Source: Dehalococcoidia bacterium
GTDB lineage: Bacteria > Chloroflexota > Dehalococcoidia > SZUA-161 > SpSt-899
NCBI GenBank assembly: GCA_034434815.1
Contig: DAOTYO010000005.1
Location: 13,118-77,117 of the forward strand
Direction: 5' to 3'
Length of the DNA stretch: 64,000 nucleotides
This document shows positions 5,259-62,673 of this stretch, in pieces. The notes under the pieces were generated by a model. It had not been told where the DNA came from. It ran no database searches and saw only the letters and a program-made list of their open reading frames with translations. Position 1 is the stretch's first letter. Every line of letters begins with the position of its first letter. Both the position numbers and the translations under genes were made by a program.

Positions 5259-6539
5259 CTACGGTTCGAGTACGGCCACGTGCCATCCGGGATCAACCCG
5301 GAAGAGATCCTTTCGCTGACCATCCGCGCGCTGAATGCCATAGCAATCGCCGCCGTAGCGCTTGGTTTCCGTGAAACTGTATCGTTGCACCCCATCCACC
5401 ACGAACGTGAAATTCCGGGCCGCATCATAGAGCGCTGCGGGACTGAAATTCTCCGCCCCTACGTTCTCCACAGCCTTCTTCACGATCTCCAACATCATGA
5501 CAAAGTTCTCCACCGCCAGATATCCGCAACCATTCCTTCTGATCTCGGTGGCTTTGCCGGGATGATTCTCCTCGAGAAGCTTGCGTGTGAGGTCAACGAT
5601 CGTTCCCTCTTCGTTCCACCACTGAGAGAGGCGGATGAAGAGCATCCCATCAGCTTCGTCCCAGAGATCAGCGGAATCGAACATTCCGGTGAAAGCCGCA
5701 TGGACATCGGTCCCAAGAAATGTCCCCTTATCCGTGAGCTCGCGGAATTCCCGAATGAAGATATTGGGGGGACAGGGCGCATAAACATAGTCGCAGCCTT
5801 TGAGGCCCTGAACCTCCGTATCCCACCGGAAGTTGAAATTCGTGAGATACCCCGTCACCCACTGGAACTGATCCGGATGGGCCTTGGCATACTTCTGGGC
5901 CGCTTCGAACCAAGCGTTGGAATAGGCCTCGGTCCATGCCGCTCCCCCAATCTTGGCCGGCCCCTTGGTATGATAGTCCCAATCGTTCTTCGCGATCCAA
6001 TCGAGAAGGGTGTAAGCCTCGTACTGGGGTAGTGTACCGAGGGTGAATACATATCCGGGCGGAGTCAAATCCTCCATGCCGGCCGCCGCGGTAAACAGTG
6101 GCATGCGGTCACTGTTCACACGTCCCTTGAGAGGCCTCACGGCGAGGGTCACAGGGGTCCAAATGATATCCGCGCCCTTCTCGATGAGCCACTCGTATCC
6201 CGGAATGGCTTTGGCCGGATCATACTGCGTATCATACGAAAGGACCTTCAGCCTCACCCCCGGGATGAGCTCGTTATCGTTGTAATACTTGACCACATCT
6301 TCGAGAGCCATGTTGATAACTTCCATGGCGGTGGAAGCGACGCCGGTGACATCGGTGATATTGCCGATAATGAGGGTGACCTTCTCATCCGACGCCGATG
6401 GCGCTCCCTGTGAATCAGCGGAGACCGGGCGGGCATTCACCTCCGTCTCCGTTTTTTCCGATCCCCCACAGCCGAAGCCAACGACCACCGCCATAACCAG
6501 AAACATCGCCACCAAAACACTTGCTATCCGCGTCCCCAT
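5259..6539 (-). CDS. ABC transporter substrate-binding lipoprotein (branched-chain amino acid / LivK-type periplasmic binding protein family)
   Basis: Lipoprotein signal MGTRIASVLVAMFLVMAVVVGFGC at the start chosen after a GGAGG RBS; type-I periplasmic binding fold composition; the track ORF has a 35-aa upstream extension. Confidence 0.7.
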   Translation of the reverse strand: MGTRIASVLVAMFLVMAVVVGFGCGGSEKTETEVNARPVSADSQGAPSASDEKVTLIIGNITDVTGVASTAMEVINMALEDVVKYYNDNELIPGVRLKVLSYDTQYDPAKAIPGYEWLIEKGADIIWTPVTLAVRPLKGRVNSDRMPLFTAAAGMEDLTPPGYVFTLGTLPQYEAYTLLDWIAKNDWDYHTKGPAKIGGAAWTEAYSNAWFEAAQKYAKAHPDQFQWVTGYLTNFNFRWDTEVQGLKGCDYVYAPCPPNIFIREFRELTDKGTFLGTDVHAAFTGMFDSADLWDEADGMLFIRLSQWWNEEGTIVDLTRKLLEENHPGKATEIRRNGCGYLAVENFVMMLEIVKKAVENVGAENFSPAALYDAARNFTFVVDGVQRYSFTETKRYGGDCYGIQRADGQRKDLFRVDPGWHVAVLEP

Positions 6540-6666
6540 CTTCTGCCTCCGTCTTTTTGTGATGATAGAATACGAACTGTGATCAGGGGAAAGAAAGATA
6601 CGAGAGGTTAGGGGGATTATAAAAAAAGAAAGGACAAATGTCAAGCACGGAAATTTCGTCTATAAC

Positions 6667-6881
6667 AGCGATTGAAGAGGAGTGCGCAGAGATGACATCT
6701 CTCGGGGGGATTGGGGATGCTCTCCAAAAACACCCTGTGGGCGGGTAGGGGGAGCGGAGAAGCCTGAGGACATGGAAGATCCCGTGGCAAGGCCCGGAAT
6801 GAGATCATCATGGGCATTCCCCCTGAGGGTGAAGACTGCAAAGCGGAATCGCTGTTTTGGGGGCCACTCCAATCCTTGACA
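6667..6881 (+). repeat. copy A of novel ~215 bp interspersed element (AGCGATTGAAGAAG ... GGGGGTGTCCCCC ... CACCCTGAGGGTG ... GAATCGCT ... TTGACA)
   Basis: Direct sequence similarity to six other loci in this window; ends in a TTGACA -35 box 17 bp upstream of TAAAGT, 24 nt before the cobO ATG. Confidence 0.8.
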
Positions 6882-6928
6882 CCAAACATGGCCGATGATA
6901 AAGTAAGGCAGCGGCGGGCACAATCGGC

Positions 6929-7459
6929 ATGACGAAAGATCACGTGGGACTCGTCCAAGTCCTGACCGGCAATGGAAGAGGCAAAACTACCGCCGCTCTC
7001 GGGACCGTTCTCCGGGCTGTGGGACAGGGGCTTCATGTTCACATCATTCACTTCATGAAAGGCACATATCCTTACGGCGAGCAAAAGGCCCTCGCGCTCT
7101 TGCCCAATGTGACGGTATCGCGTTTTGGAAAACTGGATTTCGTCGACCCTCGTAACATCAAGGAAGAGGAACGCGAAGAGGCCCGCAAAGCCCTCGCGGC
7201 GAGCAAGGAAGCCATCCACAGCGGGGCCTACGATATGGTAGTGCTCGATGAAATCAACATTGCCTCCGCTTGGGGATTGATCCCGGTCGAAGAGGTGCTC
7301 GAGCTGATCAAAACAAAGCCGGAAGGGGTGGAACTCATTTTGACCGGCCGGTATGCCGATCGGAGGCTCATCGAGGCGGCCGATCTCGTCACCGAAATGG
7401 TCGAGATCAAACACCCTTACCAGAAAGGCATCAAGGCCCGCAAGGGATTCGAATACTGA
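6929..7459 (+). CDS. cobO: cob(I)yrinic acid a,c-diamide adenosyltransferase (ATP:corrinoid adenosyltransferase, CobO/BtuR family)
   Basis: P-loop GNGRGKTTAALG and the VLDEIN motif of the CobA/CobO/BtuR family; 176 aa. Confidence 0.85.
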   Translation: MTKDHVGLVQVLTGNGRGKTTAALGTVLRAVGQGLHVHIIHFMKGTYPYGEQKALALLPNVTVSRFGKLDFVDPRNIKEEEREEARKALAASKEAIHSGAYDMVVLDEINIASAWGLIPVEEVLELIKTKPEGVELILTGRYADRRLIEAADLVTEMVEIKHPYQKGIKARKGFEY

Positions 7460-11598: not shown

Positions 11599-11682
11599 TG
11601 GCCGTCACCCATCCGGTCCATGCTTCCACCTTCTCTCAATCCTCCCACATTTTCCTTCTGGATTCCCAAAGGGACGAATGGA

Positions 11683-11899
11683 GAAAAGAGTGCACAAGAC
11701 ACCTCTCTCTCGGGGGATTGAGGGTGTCCCCCAAGAAAACCCTTTGGGCGGGTGGGTGGAATCGGAGAAGCCGGATCGCTCGTGGGGCGTGCGGGGGAAT
11801 TCCGGTACAAAGTCCGGATGAGGCGTCAACGGTTATTCACCCGAGGGTAAAGGCTGCAAAGCTGAATCGCTCTTTTTGGCGATTTCTTGTTCCTTGACA
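11683..11899 (+). repeat. copy B of interspersed element (5-prime end diverged)
   Basis: Shares the core CTCTCGGGGGATTGAGGGTGTCCCCCAAGAAAACCCTTTGGGCGGGTGGGTGG...GAATTCCGG...GCTGAATCGCT; ends in TTGACA 58 bp upstream of livG. Confidence 0.75.
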
Positions 11900-21764: not shown

Positions 21765-21883
21765 GGCGATCTTCCGGGTGCCTCCACACTCCGCCGAAGA
21801 ACCGTCAAAAGCCTTTCCCGATGGTCTCTCATAAGTATAATCCAAAGAGGGCGATTTTTACAAAAGGCCGCCGGGCCGTAAAG

Positions 21884-21977
21884 AGCGATTGAAGAAGAGA
21901 GTGCAAAAGACGCCTCTCTCGGGGTGTCCCCCAAGAAAATCCTTTGGACGGGTGGGTGGGAGCGAAGAAGCCGGGGG
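21884..21977 (+). repeat. copy C of interspersed element, 3-prime truncated (~95 bp), immediately upstream of tRNA-Thr
   Basis: AGCGATTGAAGAAGAGAGTGCAAAAGACGCCTCTCTCGGGGTGTCCCCCAAGAAAATCCTTTGGACGGGTGGGTGGGAGCGAAGAAGCC matches the 5-prime half of copies A, D, E and G. Confidence 0.75.
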
Positions 21978-22032
21978 AGAAGGAAAGAGAGTGGATTTCG
22001 GCCAACAATTGGGGTATAATCGGAAGCTGCAA

Positions 22033-22107
22033 GCCAACGTAGCTCAGTGGTAGAGCAGCGGTTTCGTAAACCGCCGGTCGTCGGTTCAAATCCGACCGTT
22101 GGCTCCA
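22033..22107 (+). tRNA. tRNA-Thr (anticodon CGU), CCA encoded
   Basis: Cloverleaf: acceptor GCCAACG/CGTTGGC, D-arm AGCTCAGTGGTAGAGC, anticodon loop TTCGTAA, T-arm GGTTCAAATCC, discriminator T + CCA; TATAAT at 22014-22019 just upstream. Confidence 0.8.
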
Positions 22108-22208: not shown

Positions 22209-23696
22209 GTGACGACTCAATACGATGCCATCATCGTCGGCGCCGGGCCCGGGGGGCTCACCGCGGCGGCGCTTCTGGCCAAATGGGGGGTGAAGGTGCT
22301 GCTCGTGGACAAGAACACCGTCCCCGGCGGGAAAGCGATCACCGCCGAACGAGAGGGGTTCCGCTATGAATTGGGCCCCAAGCTTCAGTGCCCGATGCGC
22401 GGTCCGGCCTTCGAGCGGGCCTTCAAGATGCTCGGCATCGGCTCGATGCTGCGCCCCATCTACCTCGGGGGAAATATCCTGCCCGAATGCGCCTACCGGA
22501 AGAAAGGCTGGGACCACTACAAGAAGATGATCACGCTCAAGGAAGACCCCCAAGGCAATCAGGATCCCACCCCTTTCTTCGAGCTGTTCGAATTGAATCC
22601 CAAGGAGCAGGAGCGAACCCTCACCATCTTGGCTGAGATCGCGCTCATGCCGCCGGAAAAGCTCTTGGAGCTCTCGGACCTGACCTTCGATGAGTACCTC
22701 GCGCGGGTGGGAGACGTTCCCGAATCCCTCTACTGGTACTTTGCCATGCATGCCAACGCCTCTCTGGCCGAGCCGATCGATCTCGTCTCAGCATACGAAC
22801 AGGCCGCCATTCTGCAACACATCGCCGTGAGCGGCGGGGGCGGATACTATGTGGGCGGCTTCGGCCGCGTGCTCCGGGATCTGGCGGAAGCGATCAAGGC
22901 CAACGGCGGCACCCTTCTGATGGGCAAACGGGTGCATCGCATCTCGGTGGAAAACGGAAGGGTAAAAGGTATCGTCACGGAGGCGGGGGAATTTCGAGCC
23001 CCGATCGTGCTGAGCGATGCGGGCATCCAACCCACGGTGCTCAAACTCGTGGGCGAGGAACACTTCGATAAGGGCTACGTCAACTACATCAAGGATCTTG
23101 TGCCCGGGTGGTCCTTCACCGGCGTTCGCTACTTCCTGAACAAACGCGTCATGAAGTGCGGGATGTATATGATGTGGTCGGATGACAGCGTGATCAACAT
23201 GGAACGATATCTGCAGATGAAGGCGGGAAAACTCCCCGAAGAGGTGATCATGTTCATCACCGTTCCTTCGAACTATGATCCCACCATGGCGCCCCCGGGA
23301 AAGCAGTGCCTCATTGCGGGGACGATCTGTTCCCCTGATCCCGGCGCGAAGGAGATCGCGGCGCTCTACAAGAAGATGGACGAGCTCCTCGGCAAGCTCT
23401 ACCCCGAAGCCATGGATGCCGTTTACATGAAGGAAATGGAGGGGCCGGCGGAAATCTCGGCACATACCCGCGATCATGTGCTGCCGGGGCAGGGGGGCGA
23501 GTGCGTGGGGCTGGCGCAAATCGTGGGGCAGTGCGGCAAGTACAAGCCTTCCCAAAAGACGCCCATCAACGGACTCTTCATCGTGGGGGGCGATGCGGGA
23601 GGGGTGGGGATGGGAACCCATCAAGCATCCGAATCCGGGATCAACGGAGCACATCTGGCGCTGCAATACCTCCGCAAGCGGCAAGCAAGTCAATGA
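22209..23696 (+). CDS. FAD-dependent oxidoreductase, phytoene desaturase (CrtI-like) family
   Basis: N-terminal dinucleotide fold YDAIIVGAGPGGLTAAALLAKWGVKVLLVDK; 495 aa; GTG start after GGAGGA. Confidence 0.7.
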   Translation: MTTQYDAIIVGAGPGGLTAAALLAKWGVKVLLVDKNTVPGGKAITAEREGFRYELGPKLQCPMRGPAFERAFKMLGIGSMLRPIYLGGNILPECAYRKKGWDHYKKMITLKEDPQGNQDPTPFFELFELNPKEQERTLTILAEIALMPPEKLLELSDLTFDEYLARVGDVPESLYWYFAMHANASLAEPIDLVSAYEQAAILQHIAVSGGGGYYVGGFGRVLRDLAEAIKANGGTLLMGKRVHRISVENGRVKGIVTEAGEFRAPIVLSDAGIQPTVLKLVGEEHFDKGYVNYIKDLVPGWSFTGVRYFLNKRVMKCGMYMMWSDDSVINMERYLQMKAGKLPEEVIMFITVPSNYDPTMAPPGKQCLIAGTICSPDPGAKEIAALYKKMDELLGKLYPEAMDAVYMKEMEGPAEISAHTRDHVLPGQGGECVGLAQIVGQCGKYKPSQKTPINGLFIVGGDAGGVGMGTHQASESGINGAHLALQYLRKRQASQ

Positions 23697-26312: not shown

Positions 26313-26351
26313 CATTTCCCGTCGCGATACCCAACGCCGTGCGACCCTCTG

Positions 26352-26560
26352 AAGAAGGGCGATTCCGCTTTGGAGCCTTCACCCTCAGGGGGAATGGGCT
26401 TGATCACCTCACTGCGGACCTTGCCCCGGAATTCCCCCACACCCCATGAGCGATCCGGCTTCTCCGATCCCACCCACCCAAAAGGTTTTATGGGGGGACA
26501 CCCCCAACCCCCGGCTTAAGAGGCGCCTTGGCACGCGCTTCTTCAATCGCTGTTTTTGGG
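26352..26560 (-). repeat. copy D of interspersed element (full length, inverted orientation)
   Basis: Reverse complement reads CCCAAAAACAGCGATTGAAGAAGCGCGTGCCAAGGCGCCTCTTAAGCCGGGGGTTGGGGGTGTCCCCCC...GAATTCCGGGGCAAGG...CCCTGAGGGTGAAGGCTCCAAAGCGGAATCGCC. Confidence 0.8.
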
Positions 26561-26611
26561 TCTTCTGCATGAATCCCACGCCGGCGAACTTTGTGCTACA
26601 ATACACTCGTT

Positions 26612-28273
26612 ATGTCTGAGAGGATTCTCGTTGCCGTAGCTTGGCCTTACGCCAACGGCCCGCTGCATCTCGGGCACATCGCCGGAGCCTATCTCCCCGC
26701 CGATATCTTCGCCCGATATCACCGCCTCCGCGGAAACGAAGTCTTGATGGTCTCCGGATCCGATATGCACGGCACGCCCATCACCATCAGTGCCGAACGG
26801 GAAAAGACCACCCCGGAGGAAGTGGCCTTCCGCAACCATCGCGCCTTCATGGAAGCTTGGGGAAAGATGGGGATCTCCTTCGATCTCTACACCTCCACCC
26901 ATACCCCCAATCACACGGCGGTGGTGCACGATATCTTTCTGACGCTTCTCCGGAAAGGCTATCTCTACAAGGATTCCATGCCGAGCGCCTTCTGTCCTCA
27001 CTGCAACCGCTTTCTTCCCGATCGGTACACGGAAGGGGAATGCCCCCATTGCCATGCGCCGGCCGCACGGGGAGATCAGTGCGATGAATGCGGGAAAACA
27101 TTGAGCCCGGGAGAACTCATCAACTGGAGATGCGTTCTGTGCGGCGGCAAGCCCGAGATGCGGACAACCGAGCACTACTATTTGAAGCTCTCGGCCTTCA
27201 GCGATCGGCTCGAAGCATGGGCCAGAGCTCAGACCCACTGGAAGCCCAACGTCTCGAGCTTCACCATGCGGTACATCAAGGAGGGCCTCCGCGATCGGGC
27301 CATCACCCGGGACCTCGAATGGGGCATCCCCGTGCCCGCGGAAGGGTTCGAAAGCAAACGCATTTACGTTTGGTTCGAAGCGGTGATCGGGTATCTTTCA
27401 GCCACAAAGGAATGGGCCGAGAGGAAAGGCGATCCTGAAGCATGGCGCCCCTTCTGGCGGCCGGATGCACGATCGTATTATTTCATCGGTAAGGATAACA
27501 TCCCGTTCCATACGCTCATCTGGCCGGCCATTCTGATGGGGTATGATCCGAACCTGCGCCTCCCCTATGATGTGCCCGCCAACGAGCACTTGACCCTCGA
27601 AGGCAAGCAATTCTCCAAGAGCCGCCGCTGGGCCGTATGGCTGCCCGATTATCTTGAGCGATACGATCCCGACCCCCTGCGGTACGTGCTCTCCGTGAAC
27701 ATGCCGGAGACGGGAGATACCGATTTCTCGTGGAGGGAGTTCGTCCGGCGCAACAACGATGAGCTCGTGGCGACCTATGGGAATCTCGTGAACCGCGTTC
27801 TCAAACTCACCCACCGCAACTTCGGAGGGGGGGTCCCGCCGCTCGGCGAACCGGATTCACGGGATCAAGCGCTCCTTTCCATGGCTAGAGAAACGCTCCA
27901 GCGCGTCGGCGAATCGCTGGAGATCTGCCGGTTCAAGGAGGGCATCAAATCCGCCTTTTCCCTGGCACAGGAGGCCAACCGATACCTCGATGACAAGGCC
28001 CCGTGGAAGCGGATCAAGGAAGATCGAGAAGGGGCCGCTACGTCACTGGGAGTGGCCATGGGAGTACTGGCCTGTTTGAAAACGGCGCTCTATCCCTTCT
28101 TGCCCTTCAGCTCGGAGAAATTGCACCGAATGCTGGGCTTTCCCGGAACGGTTCAGGGGGGCGGCTGGGATTTCCCCTTCCCTCTCACGGGACAGAAGCT
28201 TTCCCCTCCGGAACCGCTCTTTGTCAAGCTCGAAGAGGATATCATCGCCGCGGAAACCGCCAAACTCGGGTGA
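26612..28273 (+). CDS. metG: methionine--tRNA ligase
   Basis: HIGH motif (PYANGPLHLGHIAG), zinc knuckles CPHCN...CPHCH...CDECG...CVLCG, KMSKS-type FSKSRRW; start trimmed to MSERILV. Confidence 0.9.
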   Translation: MSERILVAVAWPYANGPLHLGHIAGAYLPADIFARYHRLRGNEVLMVSGSDMHGTPITISAEREKTTPEEVAFRNHRAFMEAWGKMGISFDLYTSTHTPNHTAVVHDIFLTLLRKGYLYKDSMPSAFCPHCNRFLPDRYTEGECPHCHAPAARGDQCDECGKTLSPGELINWRCVLCGGKPEMRTTEHYYLKLSAFSDRLEAWARAQTHWKPNVSSFTMRYIKEGLRDRAITRDLEWGIPVPAEGFESKRIYVWFEAVIGYLSATKEWAERKGDPEAWRPFWRPDARSYYFIGKDNIPFHTLIWPAILMGYDPNLRLPYDVPANEHLTLEGKQFSKSRRWAVWLPDYLERYDPDPLRYVLSVNMPETGDTDFSWREFVRRNNDELVATYGNLVNRVLKLTHRNFGGGVPPLGEPDSRDQALLSMARETLQRVGESLEICRFKEGIKSAFSLAQEANRYLDDKAPWKRIKEDREGAATSLGVAMGVLACLKTALYPFLPFSSEKLHRMLGFPGTVQGGGWDFPFPLTGQKLSPPEPLFVKLEEDIIAAETAKLG

Positions 28274-38949: not shown

Positions 38950-38985
38950 CCGGATCGCCCCCCTTCTCATTTCCTACCCAAAAAC

Positions 38986-39184
38986 AGCGATTGAAGAAGC
39001 ACGTGCCAAGACGCCTCTTAAGCCGGGGGATTGGGGGTGTCCCCCAGAAAACCCTTTGGGCGGGGTGGGGGGATCGGAGAAGCCCGATCGCACATGGGGT
39101 GAGGGGGGAATTCCGGGGCAAGGTTCACGGCGATGCGATCAAAGTCATTCACCCTGAGGGTGAAGGCTCGAAAGCGGAATCGCT
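38986..39184 (+). repeat. copy E of interspersed element (full length)
   Basis: AGCGATTGAAGAAGCACGTGCCAAGACGCCTCTTAAGCCGGGGGATTGGGGGTGTCCCCCAGAAAACCCTTTGGGCGGGG...GAATTCCGGGGCAAGG...CACCCTGAGGGTGAAGGCTCGAAAGCGGAATCGCT; followed by hairpin CCGGAAAGcCTTTCCGG and an extended -10 TGATATACT before aroQ. Confidence 0.8.
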
Positions 39185-39258
39185 GCTTTCGGACCCGGAA
39201 AGCCTTTCCGGAGTTTCCCTTTCTTGTGATATACTAAAGCAGCAAACCGAGGGCAGCG

Positions 39259-57744: not shown

Positions 57745-57807
57745 ACATACCTCCTTGAGAATCTCTCCGGATTTTCGGCATCCCTATCCCATTTCCGTCA
57801 AAACCCG

Positions 57808-57927
57808 AAAAGAGCGATCCCGCTTTGGGGCCTTCACCTCAGAGCGAGTGCCTGTGATCACCTCACTCCGGACCTTACCCCCCAATCCCCCCGTGGCGGT
57901 GTCTCGGCACACGATTTCTCGATCGCC
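57808..57927 (-). repeat. copy F of interspersed element (internal ~80 bp deletion, inverted orientation)
   Basis: Reverse complement reads GGCGATCGAGAAATCGTGTGCCGAGACACCGCCACGGGGGGATTGGGGGG / TAAGGTCCGGAGTGAGGTGATCA...CTCTGAGGTGAAGGCCCCAAAGCGGGATCGCT, then TTTTGACG. Confidence 0.7.
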
Positions 57928-57947
57928 GTTCCGGGGTCAAAACACAA

Positions 57948-62223: not shown

Positions 62224-62353
62224 TATAGGGCGGGGAGCCTCAGGGGTCAACCGATTTCTCCGTGCCGAAAACCAACCGCCGGAGCCCCCAAGGCCTTCCT
62301 ACGAACCGCCGCGAACTTCCGAGACACGCCTTTGCGATTTCCCAACCCAGAAC

Positions 62354-62580
62354 GGCGATCGAAGAAGCCCATGCCCGGACGCCTCTTTAGCCGGGGGTTT
62401 GGGGGTGCCCCCCAAGAAACCCTTTGGGCGGGCGGGTGGGATCGAAGAAGCCGGATCGTTCATGGGGTGCGGGAAAATCCCGGCGCAAGGTCCGGAACGA
62501 GGCGATCACGCTCACTCACCCTGAGAGCGAAGGCTCCAAAAGCTGAATTCGCCTTTTTGGGGTCTTAACCGGCCCTTGAC
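62354..62580 (+). repeat. copy G of interspersed element (full length) ending in a TTGACT -35 box
   Basis: GGCGATCGAAGAAGCCCATGCCCGGACGCCTCTTTAGCCGGGGGTTTGGGGGTGCCCCCCAAGAAACCCTTTGGGCGGGCGGGTGGGATCGAAGAAGCC...GCAAGGTCCGG...CACCCTGAGAGCGAAGGCTCCAAAAGCTGAATTCGCC...CCCTTGACT. Confidence 0.8.
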
Positions 62581-62605
62581 TTGTGTCGACAGAGAGTGGT
62601 ATATT
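62575..62605 (+). promoter_or_regulatory. sigma70-like promoter (TTGACT -35 contributed by repeat copy G; TGgTATATT extended -10)
   Basis: TTGACTtgtgtcgacagagagTGgTATATT; followed by an AT-rich ~70 nt leader and an AAGGGGG RBS before the ATG at 62674. Confidence 0.55.
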
Positions 62606-62673
62606 CTCCCTTGGCCGGAGTAAATCAATTTAACTTGTATAAAAACAATTTTTCTTTATAAAAGGGGGCGCTA

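Follow-up and report, generated by a model that had tools for sequence, protein, structure and literature searches.

The window, as the whole stretch of DNA analysed here is called, is 64,000 nucleotides long and belongs to a 198-kb metagenome contig (ENA ERZ27247228 k141_1368796). The nearest named homologs of its CobO, AroQ and MetG proteins all come from annotated Dehalococcoidia or Chloroflexota MAGs. Repeat finding and alignment locate seven copies of one repeat, called A to G here, about one per 9 kb of the 64-kb window. The copies and the promoters beside them are listed below.

6616..6644, minus strand: outward promoter at the 5' end of copy A, TTGACA 6644..6639, 17 nt, TATAAT 6621..6616 (promoter scan 12/12)
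6658..6862, plus strand: copy A, a full-length MITE with a degenerate 5' terminal inverted repeat (TIR), TCTATAACAGCGATT, ending in ...GTTTTGGG (nhmmer, alignment, information profile)
6846-6853, plus strand: GAATCGCT at the 3' end of copy A, followed by GTTTTGGGGG and then by 12-14 nt without family conservation
6876..6904, plus strand: cobO promoter, TTGACA 6876-6881, 17 nt, TAAAGT 6899-6904, with TGn (promoter scan 10/12)
11664..11880, plus strand: copy B, full-length MITE, with GAATCGCT at 11864-11871 and TTGACA at 11894-11899 in phase
21877..21974, plus strand: copy C, 5' half of the MITE only, the 3' half being lost (nhmmer, alignment)
26349..26560, minus strand: copy D, full-length MITE, its 5' end facing the metG promoter
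26594..26602, plus strand: metG promoter, extended -10 TGCTACAAT, phased with the 5' end of copy D, the -10 being at position 46
38977..39193, plus strand: copy E, full-length MITE, beginning 20 nt past the stop codon of the upstream gene
39227..39235, plus strand: aroQ promoter, extended -10 TGATATACT with a poor -35, phased with the 3' end of copy E, the -10 being at position 46
57800..57941, minus strand: copy F, MITE with a large internal deletion (nhmmer, alignment)
62345..62561, plus strand: copy G, full-length MITE, with the variant GAATTCGC of the 3' TIR
62576..62605, plus strand: promoter of the gene at 62673, TTGACT 62576-62581, 18 nt, TATATT 62600-62605, with TGn (promoter scan 10/12)

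The cobO gene starts with an ATG at 6929, and the -35 hexamer of its promoter begins 14 nt beyond the terminal GGG of copy A. The promoter on the 5' side of copy A serves a divergent Peripla_BP_6 gene (5260-6540, minus strand), and its spacing mirrors that on the 3' side. The DNA to the left of copy A is rearranged in relatives. No acceptable -10 follows the TTGACA of copy B at a distance of 16-18 nt. Copy C is followed by a TATAAT box and then by tRNA-Thr (22033-22107). The metG start codon is at 26612, so the mRNA would be nearly leaderless. The 3' end of copy G and the promoter of the gene at 62673 are in phase.

The first-pass annotation had noted a TTGAC 25-26 nt after GAATCGCT in copies A, B and G. 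The spacing is indeed fixed, but the distance is shorter, the gap being exactly 22 nt in all three. The -10 boxes that it proposed behind the TTGAC of copies A and G are both called by the promoter scan, TAAAGT after 17 nt and TATATT after 18 nt. Copy F does not end in the same way as these copies, as had been thought: its TTGACG is 10 nt too close, and thus out of phase, and has no -10. Six of the seven copies are co-oriented with the downstream gene, as had been stated for the window. Copy D is the only inverted copy relative to genes; strand-wise, both D and F are on the minus strand. Nor is copy D the exception that it was taken for, as its 5' end abuts the metG promoter.

The repeat family

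Full-length copies are 200-222 bp long, with a median of 217 bp (54 distinct copies), and their pairwise identity is 69-94%. There is no conserved ORF in these 54 copies, and the stop-free frames differ from copy to copy. The ends are imperfect TIRs of about 16 bp, 5'-CCCAAAA(A/G)NAGCGATT ... AATCGCTN(T)TTTTGGG-3', and the pair CCCAAAA..AGCGATT / AATCGCT..TTTTGGG is present in all full-length copies. The TIR can be written as CCCAAAARNAGCGATT, with its complement at the opposite end. The interior is long and G-rich. Its per-column conservation is 0.90-0.97 in the central 80 columns, a value that is partly due to ascertainment, as the search pattern sits in that region.

The boundaries of the element were determined from information profiles anchored on GAATCGCT for the 3' end and on AGCGATT for the 5' end. 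The information content is high through CTTTT(T)GGG and about zero from position 10, in the same way at both ends. This symmetry shows the ends to be inverted repeats, and either end can therefore face a promoter. Family conservation stops 9 nt past GAATCGCT, at ...TTTTGGG. The repeat does not end in a -35 hexamer, contrary to the earlier description; the -35 is 14 nt further out.

A scan with a specific 30-mer pattern yielded 43 metagenome loci from four JGI metagenomes. An nhmmer profile built from the window copies then gave 75 matches in the window and these loci (about 420 kb), 54 of which are the distinct full-length copies; together with the fragments they are dispersed and have unrelated flanks. 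The specific pattern had no match in viral contigs. A loose pattern, GCGATYGAAGARGN{60,85}CGRAGAAGCC, gave 75 loci in genome contigs, all of them chance matches without similarity to the element. The Logan short-read assemblies break within copies, as expected of a dispersed repeat. Metagenome assemblies of repeats may be chimeric, and two of the loci, L096 and L099, differ only in the 5' part of the element.

Many copies are abutted at both ends by direct repeats, for example GGGGTGAAC, GGGATAGCCC, GCCCATGACC, GTCATCC and TCGAAA. The longest exact repeat shared between the two flanks has a mean length of 5.57 nt, compared with 4.77 +/- 0.125 nt upon pairing the flanks of different copies. None of 200 such permutations reached the observed mean, the permutation maximum being 5.16 nt. 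The target-site duplications are varied in sequence and probably between 5 and 10 bp long, the repeats often running into the terminal CCC/GGG. Clear direct repeats of 9-10 bp adjoin the element ends in some copies, and copy A has no target-site duplication. Filled and empty orthologous sites can be compared at cobO, metG and aroQ, whose upstream regions in relatives lack the element and keep the flank. Within the same population, no empty site was found when virtual joined flanks were searched against the window and the metagenome loci. The roughly 420 kb searched contain no autonomous partner, no transposase with these TIRs and no solitary or widely spaced TIRs.

The TIRs, the target-site duplications and the 54 dispersed full-length copies bear out the first-pass view of the repeats as a mobile, MITE-like family. 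REP/BIME sequences, which are palindromic units of 20-40 bp with GTAG/CGTC heads, were rejected as an identification; the unit here is about 217 bp long and has distinct TIRs and duplications. This kind of element is known already, and it is the insertion behaviour that appears to be new.

Spacing between element ends and promoters

Both flanks of each copy were read outward from the element, with positions counted from GAATCGCT or its mirror, giving 108 ends. An outward TTGACA (one mismatch at most) starts at position 22-25 at 28 of the 108 ends, with 1.0 expected (Poisson p ~2e-30). An outward TATAAT (one mismatch at most) starts at position 45-49 at 32 ends, with 1.4 expected (p ~9e-32). 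The expected counts were derived from the remaining positions. The -35 peak is only 1-2 nt wide, as 17 of the 28 hexamers start at position 23 and 7 at position 24. The reverse-complement motifs, used as controls, have a flat distribution and no peak. Ten copies have an exact TTGAC in phase on their downstream side (position 23-24), and 12 have one on their upstream side, at the mirror position (22-25); only copy A of the window has both. The mirror phasing at the 5' end, read outward, is absent from the first-pass annotation.

The copies were also scored by a combined criterion, which accepts a good -35 or a good -10 by itself or a moderate pair of them and which fires on 4.4% of shifted registers. 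A phased promoter is present on at least one side of 46 of the 54 copies (about 85%). Of these, 24 have it only at the 3' end, 17 have it only at the 5' end, and 5 have one at each end. Seven copies have none, and one is undetermined. The 24:17 split represents no significant bias in orientation relative to the promoter (binomial p = 0.35). The co-orientation seen in the window therefore does not extend to the family, and the tally of all 54 copies does not favour the bias that the first-pass annotation had expected.

The -35 is poor at 10 of the 32 phased -10 boxes, and 5 of these 10 have a TGn. As the -10 is phased even where the -35 is poor, the phased unit is the whole promoter and not the TTGAC word. 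In promoter coordinates, the terminal GGG is situated at -52..-50 and the T-tract of the TIR at -57..-53, and GAATCGCT is centred near -61.5. The spacing is held to within 1 nt in old copies, which are roughly 20% diverged, and few promoter-adjacent copies are out of phase.

The same register is found beside related elements. The relative L134 has a different, shorter element (about 135 bp), whose ends are recognisably similar and whose interior is different. A leftward promoter stands 14 nt from the 5' end of this element, its TAGACT being at position 23 and its TATAAT at position 47. A further short variant, in L135/L136, has AATCGCTGCTTTCGG as its end, and the aroQ -10 is at position 46, the register of copy E in the window. 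Judged from these variants, the phasing goes with the ends of the element and not with its interior.

Taken as a whole, the repeats are very probably a family of non-autonomous DNA transposons (MITEs) whose copies are situated at about -49/-50 of pre-existing sigma-70-type promoters.

Origin of the promoters and of their spacing

The hexamers belong neither to the element, as bounded above, nor to the target-site duplications. Both the linker between the GGG and the -35 and the spacer between the -35 and the -10 are unrelated in sequence from copy to copy. Of the 70 ends facing a gene start, 30 have a phased promoter, compared with 3 of the 32 facing a gene end (Fisher p = 6e-4). The intergenic regions that contain an element comprise 32 tandem, 26 divergent and 4 convergent ones, and those without an element 216, 20 and 39, respectively (chi-square p = 5e-12), showing an excess of elements in divergent regions and a deficit in convergent ones. 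Genes were called with our own caller, using iterative retraining and start-codon trimming; over the first ~17 kb of the window the calls match the precomputed ones except for start positions.

The promoters are also found where the element is missing. In five relatives (L128/L129, with 86% amino-acid identity in CobO, and also L127, L122 and L125; the other identities are 84% and 81%) there is no element upstream of cobO. The layout of the promoter is identical in all five, CC-TTGACAC..AA...GGCCG.TG.-TAAAGT, with a recognisably homologous spacer. The homology reaches about 13 nt upstream of the -35, where the window switches into the TIR. Upstream of metG the element is absent from L137 (88%) and L138/L139 (86%), and TTTGTG(C/T)TACAATAC..TCGTTATG is kept. 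A partial copy elsewhere in L138 shows that the family is present in that relative. The extended -10 of aroQ, TG(N)TATACTAA, is kept in four relatives, L133-L136, the first of which (90%) has no element there. The relatives that provide these empty sites have 81-90% protein identity, and in them the synteny on the far side of the element is often not conserved.

Since element-free relatives keep the cobO, aroQ and metG promoters, these promoters are native and were there before the insertions, and the boxes are, as first proposed, real promoters of the adjacent genes. On the evidence of these comparisons, the -35 and -10 hexamers are native promoters of neighbouring genes and not parts of the element. 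The duplications, the dependence on gene context and the empty sites also led us to reject the hexamers as the outer part of a longer element. The T-tract and GGG at -57..-50 are absent from 28 promoter-like sites in the same DNA that do not adjoin an element. They are thus not a general promoter feature of the organism, and a general upstream promoter motif of the host was rejected for this reason.

The fixed spacing arises because the elements occupy one position upstream of promoters that already exist. As the -35 begins 14 nt beyond the terminal GGG, the insertion point is at about -49/-50. The phasing probably originates at the moment of insertion, when a transposase complex would choose its target by reference to the promoter. 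The position is more readily explained by a choice at insertion because a peak of 1-2 nt at more than 40 unrelated promoters would be hard to produce by selection or by compaction when neutral upstream sites are available. The landmark would most simply be the promoter-bound RNA polymerase holoenzyme, or a distortion or bend that the holoenzyme causes in the DNA upstream. Either would be preferred to TTGACA alone as the landmark, given that the -10 is phased even where the -35 is poor. More tentatively, and with somewhat less than an even chance of being right, the element may be a bacterial DNA transposon that reads sigma-70-type promoters, most likely via the bound holoenzyme, and whose insertion at about -49/-50 can be in either orientation, a counterpart of the Ty3-style targeting of the transcription complex. 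If so, an identical TIR, centred near -61.5, would be found upstream of a large share of the host's promoters and could be co-opted as a shared regulatory site.

The main rival to targeting is selection. Insertion would then be random or weakly biased, and phased copies would persist because the end of the element is useful, or uniquely harmless, at the exact distance. The T-tract of the TIR might act as an UP-like element at -57..-53, or there might be an activator site near -61.5 (a class I position), the activator possibly being the transposase or a domesticated relative. As a dispersed cis-regulatory module, the family would then bring many promoters together in one regulon. The geometry of GAATCGCT and the T-tract is suggestive in this respect, the spacing is kept within 1 nt in strongly diverged copies, and the interior is unusually well conserved for a MITE. 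However, the central conservation is partly ascertainment, and the same benefit would be needed at more than 40 unrelated promoters, such as those of cobO, aroQ, metG and an ABC transporter gene. Neutral insertions further upstream should also survive, yet few promoter-adjacent copies are unphased, and promoters away from elements have no such upstream motif. We consider selection an unlikely origin of the spacing, although the two views are not exclusive and are compatible with each other.

It is far less probable that the phasing is a by-product of genome compaction, in which short spacers would tolerate insertion only just upstream of the -35. The spacers are indeed short (median 35 nt in tandem and 144 nt in divergent regions), but compaction should produce a one-sided or broad distribution and not the narrow peak seen at positions 23 and 24. 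Divergent regions, moreover, offer about 100 nt of alternative sites, and the flank on the other side of many elements is free for more than 50-100 nt.

Slightly less probable still is an RNA function, either as a family of structured leaders, which the first-pass annotation gave as its alternative, or as small RNA genes transcribed from upstream. The consensus does fold: a multibranch model derived from five copies and closed by the TIR stem has 89% of cells paired on 52 copies. Some copies start 14-30 nt past an upstream stop codon and are therefore probably transcribed by read-through as 3' tails. However, the elements are upstream of promoters and not between the transcription start and the start codon, and they occur in both orientations, which rules out a 5' leader. 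A search of Rfam found no match to the element at the gathering threshold, where only the tRNA-Thr was detected, and none at E up to 10 except noise in copy E. Single-sequence folds are unremarkable (z = -1.6 and -2.4), and RNAalifold on 52 copies gives only 11 pairs and -5 kcal/mol. Covariation for the five-copy model on the 52 copies does not exceed that of shuffles, every measure being at the shuffle mean (for example 261/500 and 384/500).

The least probable explanation is the one that the first-pass annotation had put forward, namely a promoter-donating MITE like the Correia elements, whose end carries a -35, and in some copies a -10, for the downstream gene; it was suggested by the TTGAC at fixed spacing in copies A, B and G and by the co-orientation of most window copies with the next gene, but it is at odds with hexamers that start 14 nt beyond the conserved element and are not within the duplications, with unrelated linkers and spacers, with the near absence of hexamers at ends facing gene ends, with the cobO, aroQ and metG promoters of element-free relatives and with the lack of orientation bias.

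Significance and comparison with known systems

If the phasing is made at insertion, the family would represent a bacterial transposon with a nucleotide-precise choice of target relative to promoters. It would then be clear how a high-copy element can be maintained in a compact genome while the genes remain intact. The transposase would presumably be able to sense promoters or RNA polymerase, a property of mechanistic and possibly of engineering interest. If the phasing is instead kept by selection, a mobile element would have wired dozens of unrelated promoters into a regulon by means of a dispersed upstream module. Under both views, the copies provide a map, obtained from sequence only, of where an uncultured Dehalococcoidia-like lineage has its sigma-70-type promoters, with their -35, -10 and extended -10 boxes.

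Like other prokaryotic MITEs (ERIC/IRU, RUP, MITEAba12, BrickBuilt, Nezha), the element is small, non-coding and multicopy, has TIRs and duplications, is intergenic and is polymorphic for presence and absence among relatives. It differs from them in that 85% of the copies are at one nucleotide-precise distance from a sigma-70-type promoter and in its long, G-rich and well conserved interior. A review of MITEs describes intergenic preference, internal promoters, IHF sites, small RNAs and terminator-like roles (PMC10969869). Promoter-phased insertion is not among the known insertion preferences of MITEs in sections 3.3 and 4.1 of that review (PMC10969869), and a limited literature search found no description of it.

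The Correia elements of Neisseria (CREE/NEMIS) are likewise MITEs beside promoters, immediately upstream of genes. The sigma-70-like promoter sequences of Correia elements are carried inside the element (PMC10969869), whereas the hexamers described here are in flanking DNA and are older than the insertion. The tempting reading that the repeat supplies promoters is thereby corrected, whichever origin of the phasing applies. A further difference is in the target: Correia elements duplicate a TA, and the duplications here are 5-10 bp long, varied and not TA.

A fixed geometry between a transposon end and a promoter hexamer is also known from insertion sequences with an outward -35. In IS1, IS2, IS257 and IS481 the outward -35 is inside the end of the IS and pairs with a resident -10 to form a hybrid promoter. 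Here, in contrast, both hexamers are resident, and the end of the element is 14 nt upstream of the -35.

Tn7-like and TniQ-directed elements resemble the family, by analogy only, in inserting at a fixed distance from a recognised landmark. Tn7 uses one specific site, attTn7 downstream of glmS, in one orientation. The landmark here is a generic promoter at many loci, and both orientations occur.

Ty3 integrates at Pol III start sites via TFIIIB, and Tf1 integrates at Pol II promoters. The likeness to these elements is again an analogy only and consists of a fixed position relative to the transcription machinery, insertion in either orientation and the sparing of coding sequence. Ty3 and Tf1 are retrotransposons with integrases and known tethering factors, whereas the element described here is a bacterial DNA transposon, with no transposase found in the roughly 420 kb searched. 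The feature in common with a Ty3-like element is a fixed distance from the promoter in both orientations (p ~1e-30 for each hexamer; 24, 17 and 5 copies with the promoter at the 3' end, the 5' end and both ends, respectively).

A G-quadruplex motif within the element

The sequence GGGCGGGTGGGTGGG is present on the top strand of the MITE element in 31 of the 52 full-length copies:

Element positions ~83-100 in most copies (e.g. copy G, window 62426-62440), element top strand: G-quadruplex motif GGGCGGGTGGGTGGG

It has four G3 tracts connected by 1-nt loops and is a textbook short-loop G-quadruplex motif. On the element's bottom strand, no short-loop G-quadruplex motif was found in any of the 52 full-length copies. 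Outside the elements, the window holds just one further motif of this type, at 23597.

Copies and their neighboring genes

Copy A (window 6616-6904 including both flanks) has in-phase promoters at either side. Its 5' terminal inverted repeat (TIR) is degenerate, and no flanking duplication was found at this copy. The gene before cobO, which adjoins copy A, is a DUF8426 gene in the relatives, whereas it is a divergent Peripla_BP_6 gene in the window. Taken together, these features suggest that copy A may be a recombinant of two copies and that the locus may have been rearranged by that event.

Copy C (window 21877-22107) lacks its 3' half, and a TATAAT box followed by tRNA-Thr (CGT) is found within about 40 nt past the break. 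The promoter region of tRNA-Thr may therefore have been rebuilt through a deletion that took away the end of copy C.

The ATG of metG (26612), the gene adjoining copy D, is situated only 9 nt past the -10 TACAAT (window 26594-26614). The TACAATAC..TCGTTATG arrangement at the metG start is conserved in three relatives, suggesting a leaderless or nearly leaderless metG mRNA.

The stretch that separates copy E from the aroQ -10 holds an inverted repeat:

Window 39185-39215: inverted repeat CCGGAAAG(C)CTTTCCGG, then AGTTT

It partly echoes the element's own end (CTTTCGGA / CTTTCCGGA) and could be what is left of a duplication, or else a small hairpin.

Same-site copies and assembly breakage

Two metagenomes each have an element copy at the same site:

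L096:9975-10190: element copy, first metagenome
L099:7498-7708: element copy, second metagenome

The flanks and the 3' ~130 nt of these copies are identical and the 5' ~90 nt are substantially different, which would be due to gene conversion from one copy to another or to chimeric assembly of the repeat. Two Logan contigs with the window's cobO (L002 and L003), which are independent short-read assemblies, break off within copy A, 37 nt short of its 3' end, and L002 additionally stops 92 nt into copy B. Judging from these contig ends, the family breaks up assemblies of this Dehalococcoidia-like lineage, and counts of it from MAGs will be too low.

Related elements upstream of aroQ

In two relatives, TIR-like sequence or shorter elements lie upstream of aroQ:

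L135:~985-1060 (82% relative): perfect 12-bp palindrome of TIR-like sequence (AAGGGCGATTCA TGAATCGCCCTT) and the short element after it
L134:~45-180 (92% relative): shorter element, ~135 bp

The palindrome directly follows a gene for a tyrosine recombinase (Phage_integrase family). Beyond the palindrome lies a short element that contains a CCCCCTTTACGAAAGGGGG hairpin and terminates in the same rare 3' end as window copy E (AATCGCTGCTTTCGG). The ~135-bp element has ends recognizably similar to those of the MITE family and an unrelated interior. One kind of end thus appears to be common to several internal-sequence subfamilies, which presumably use one transposase in common.
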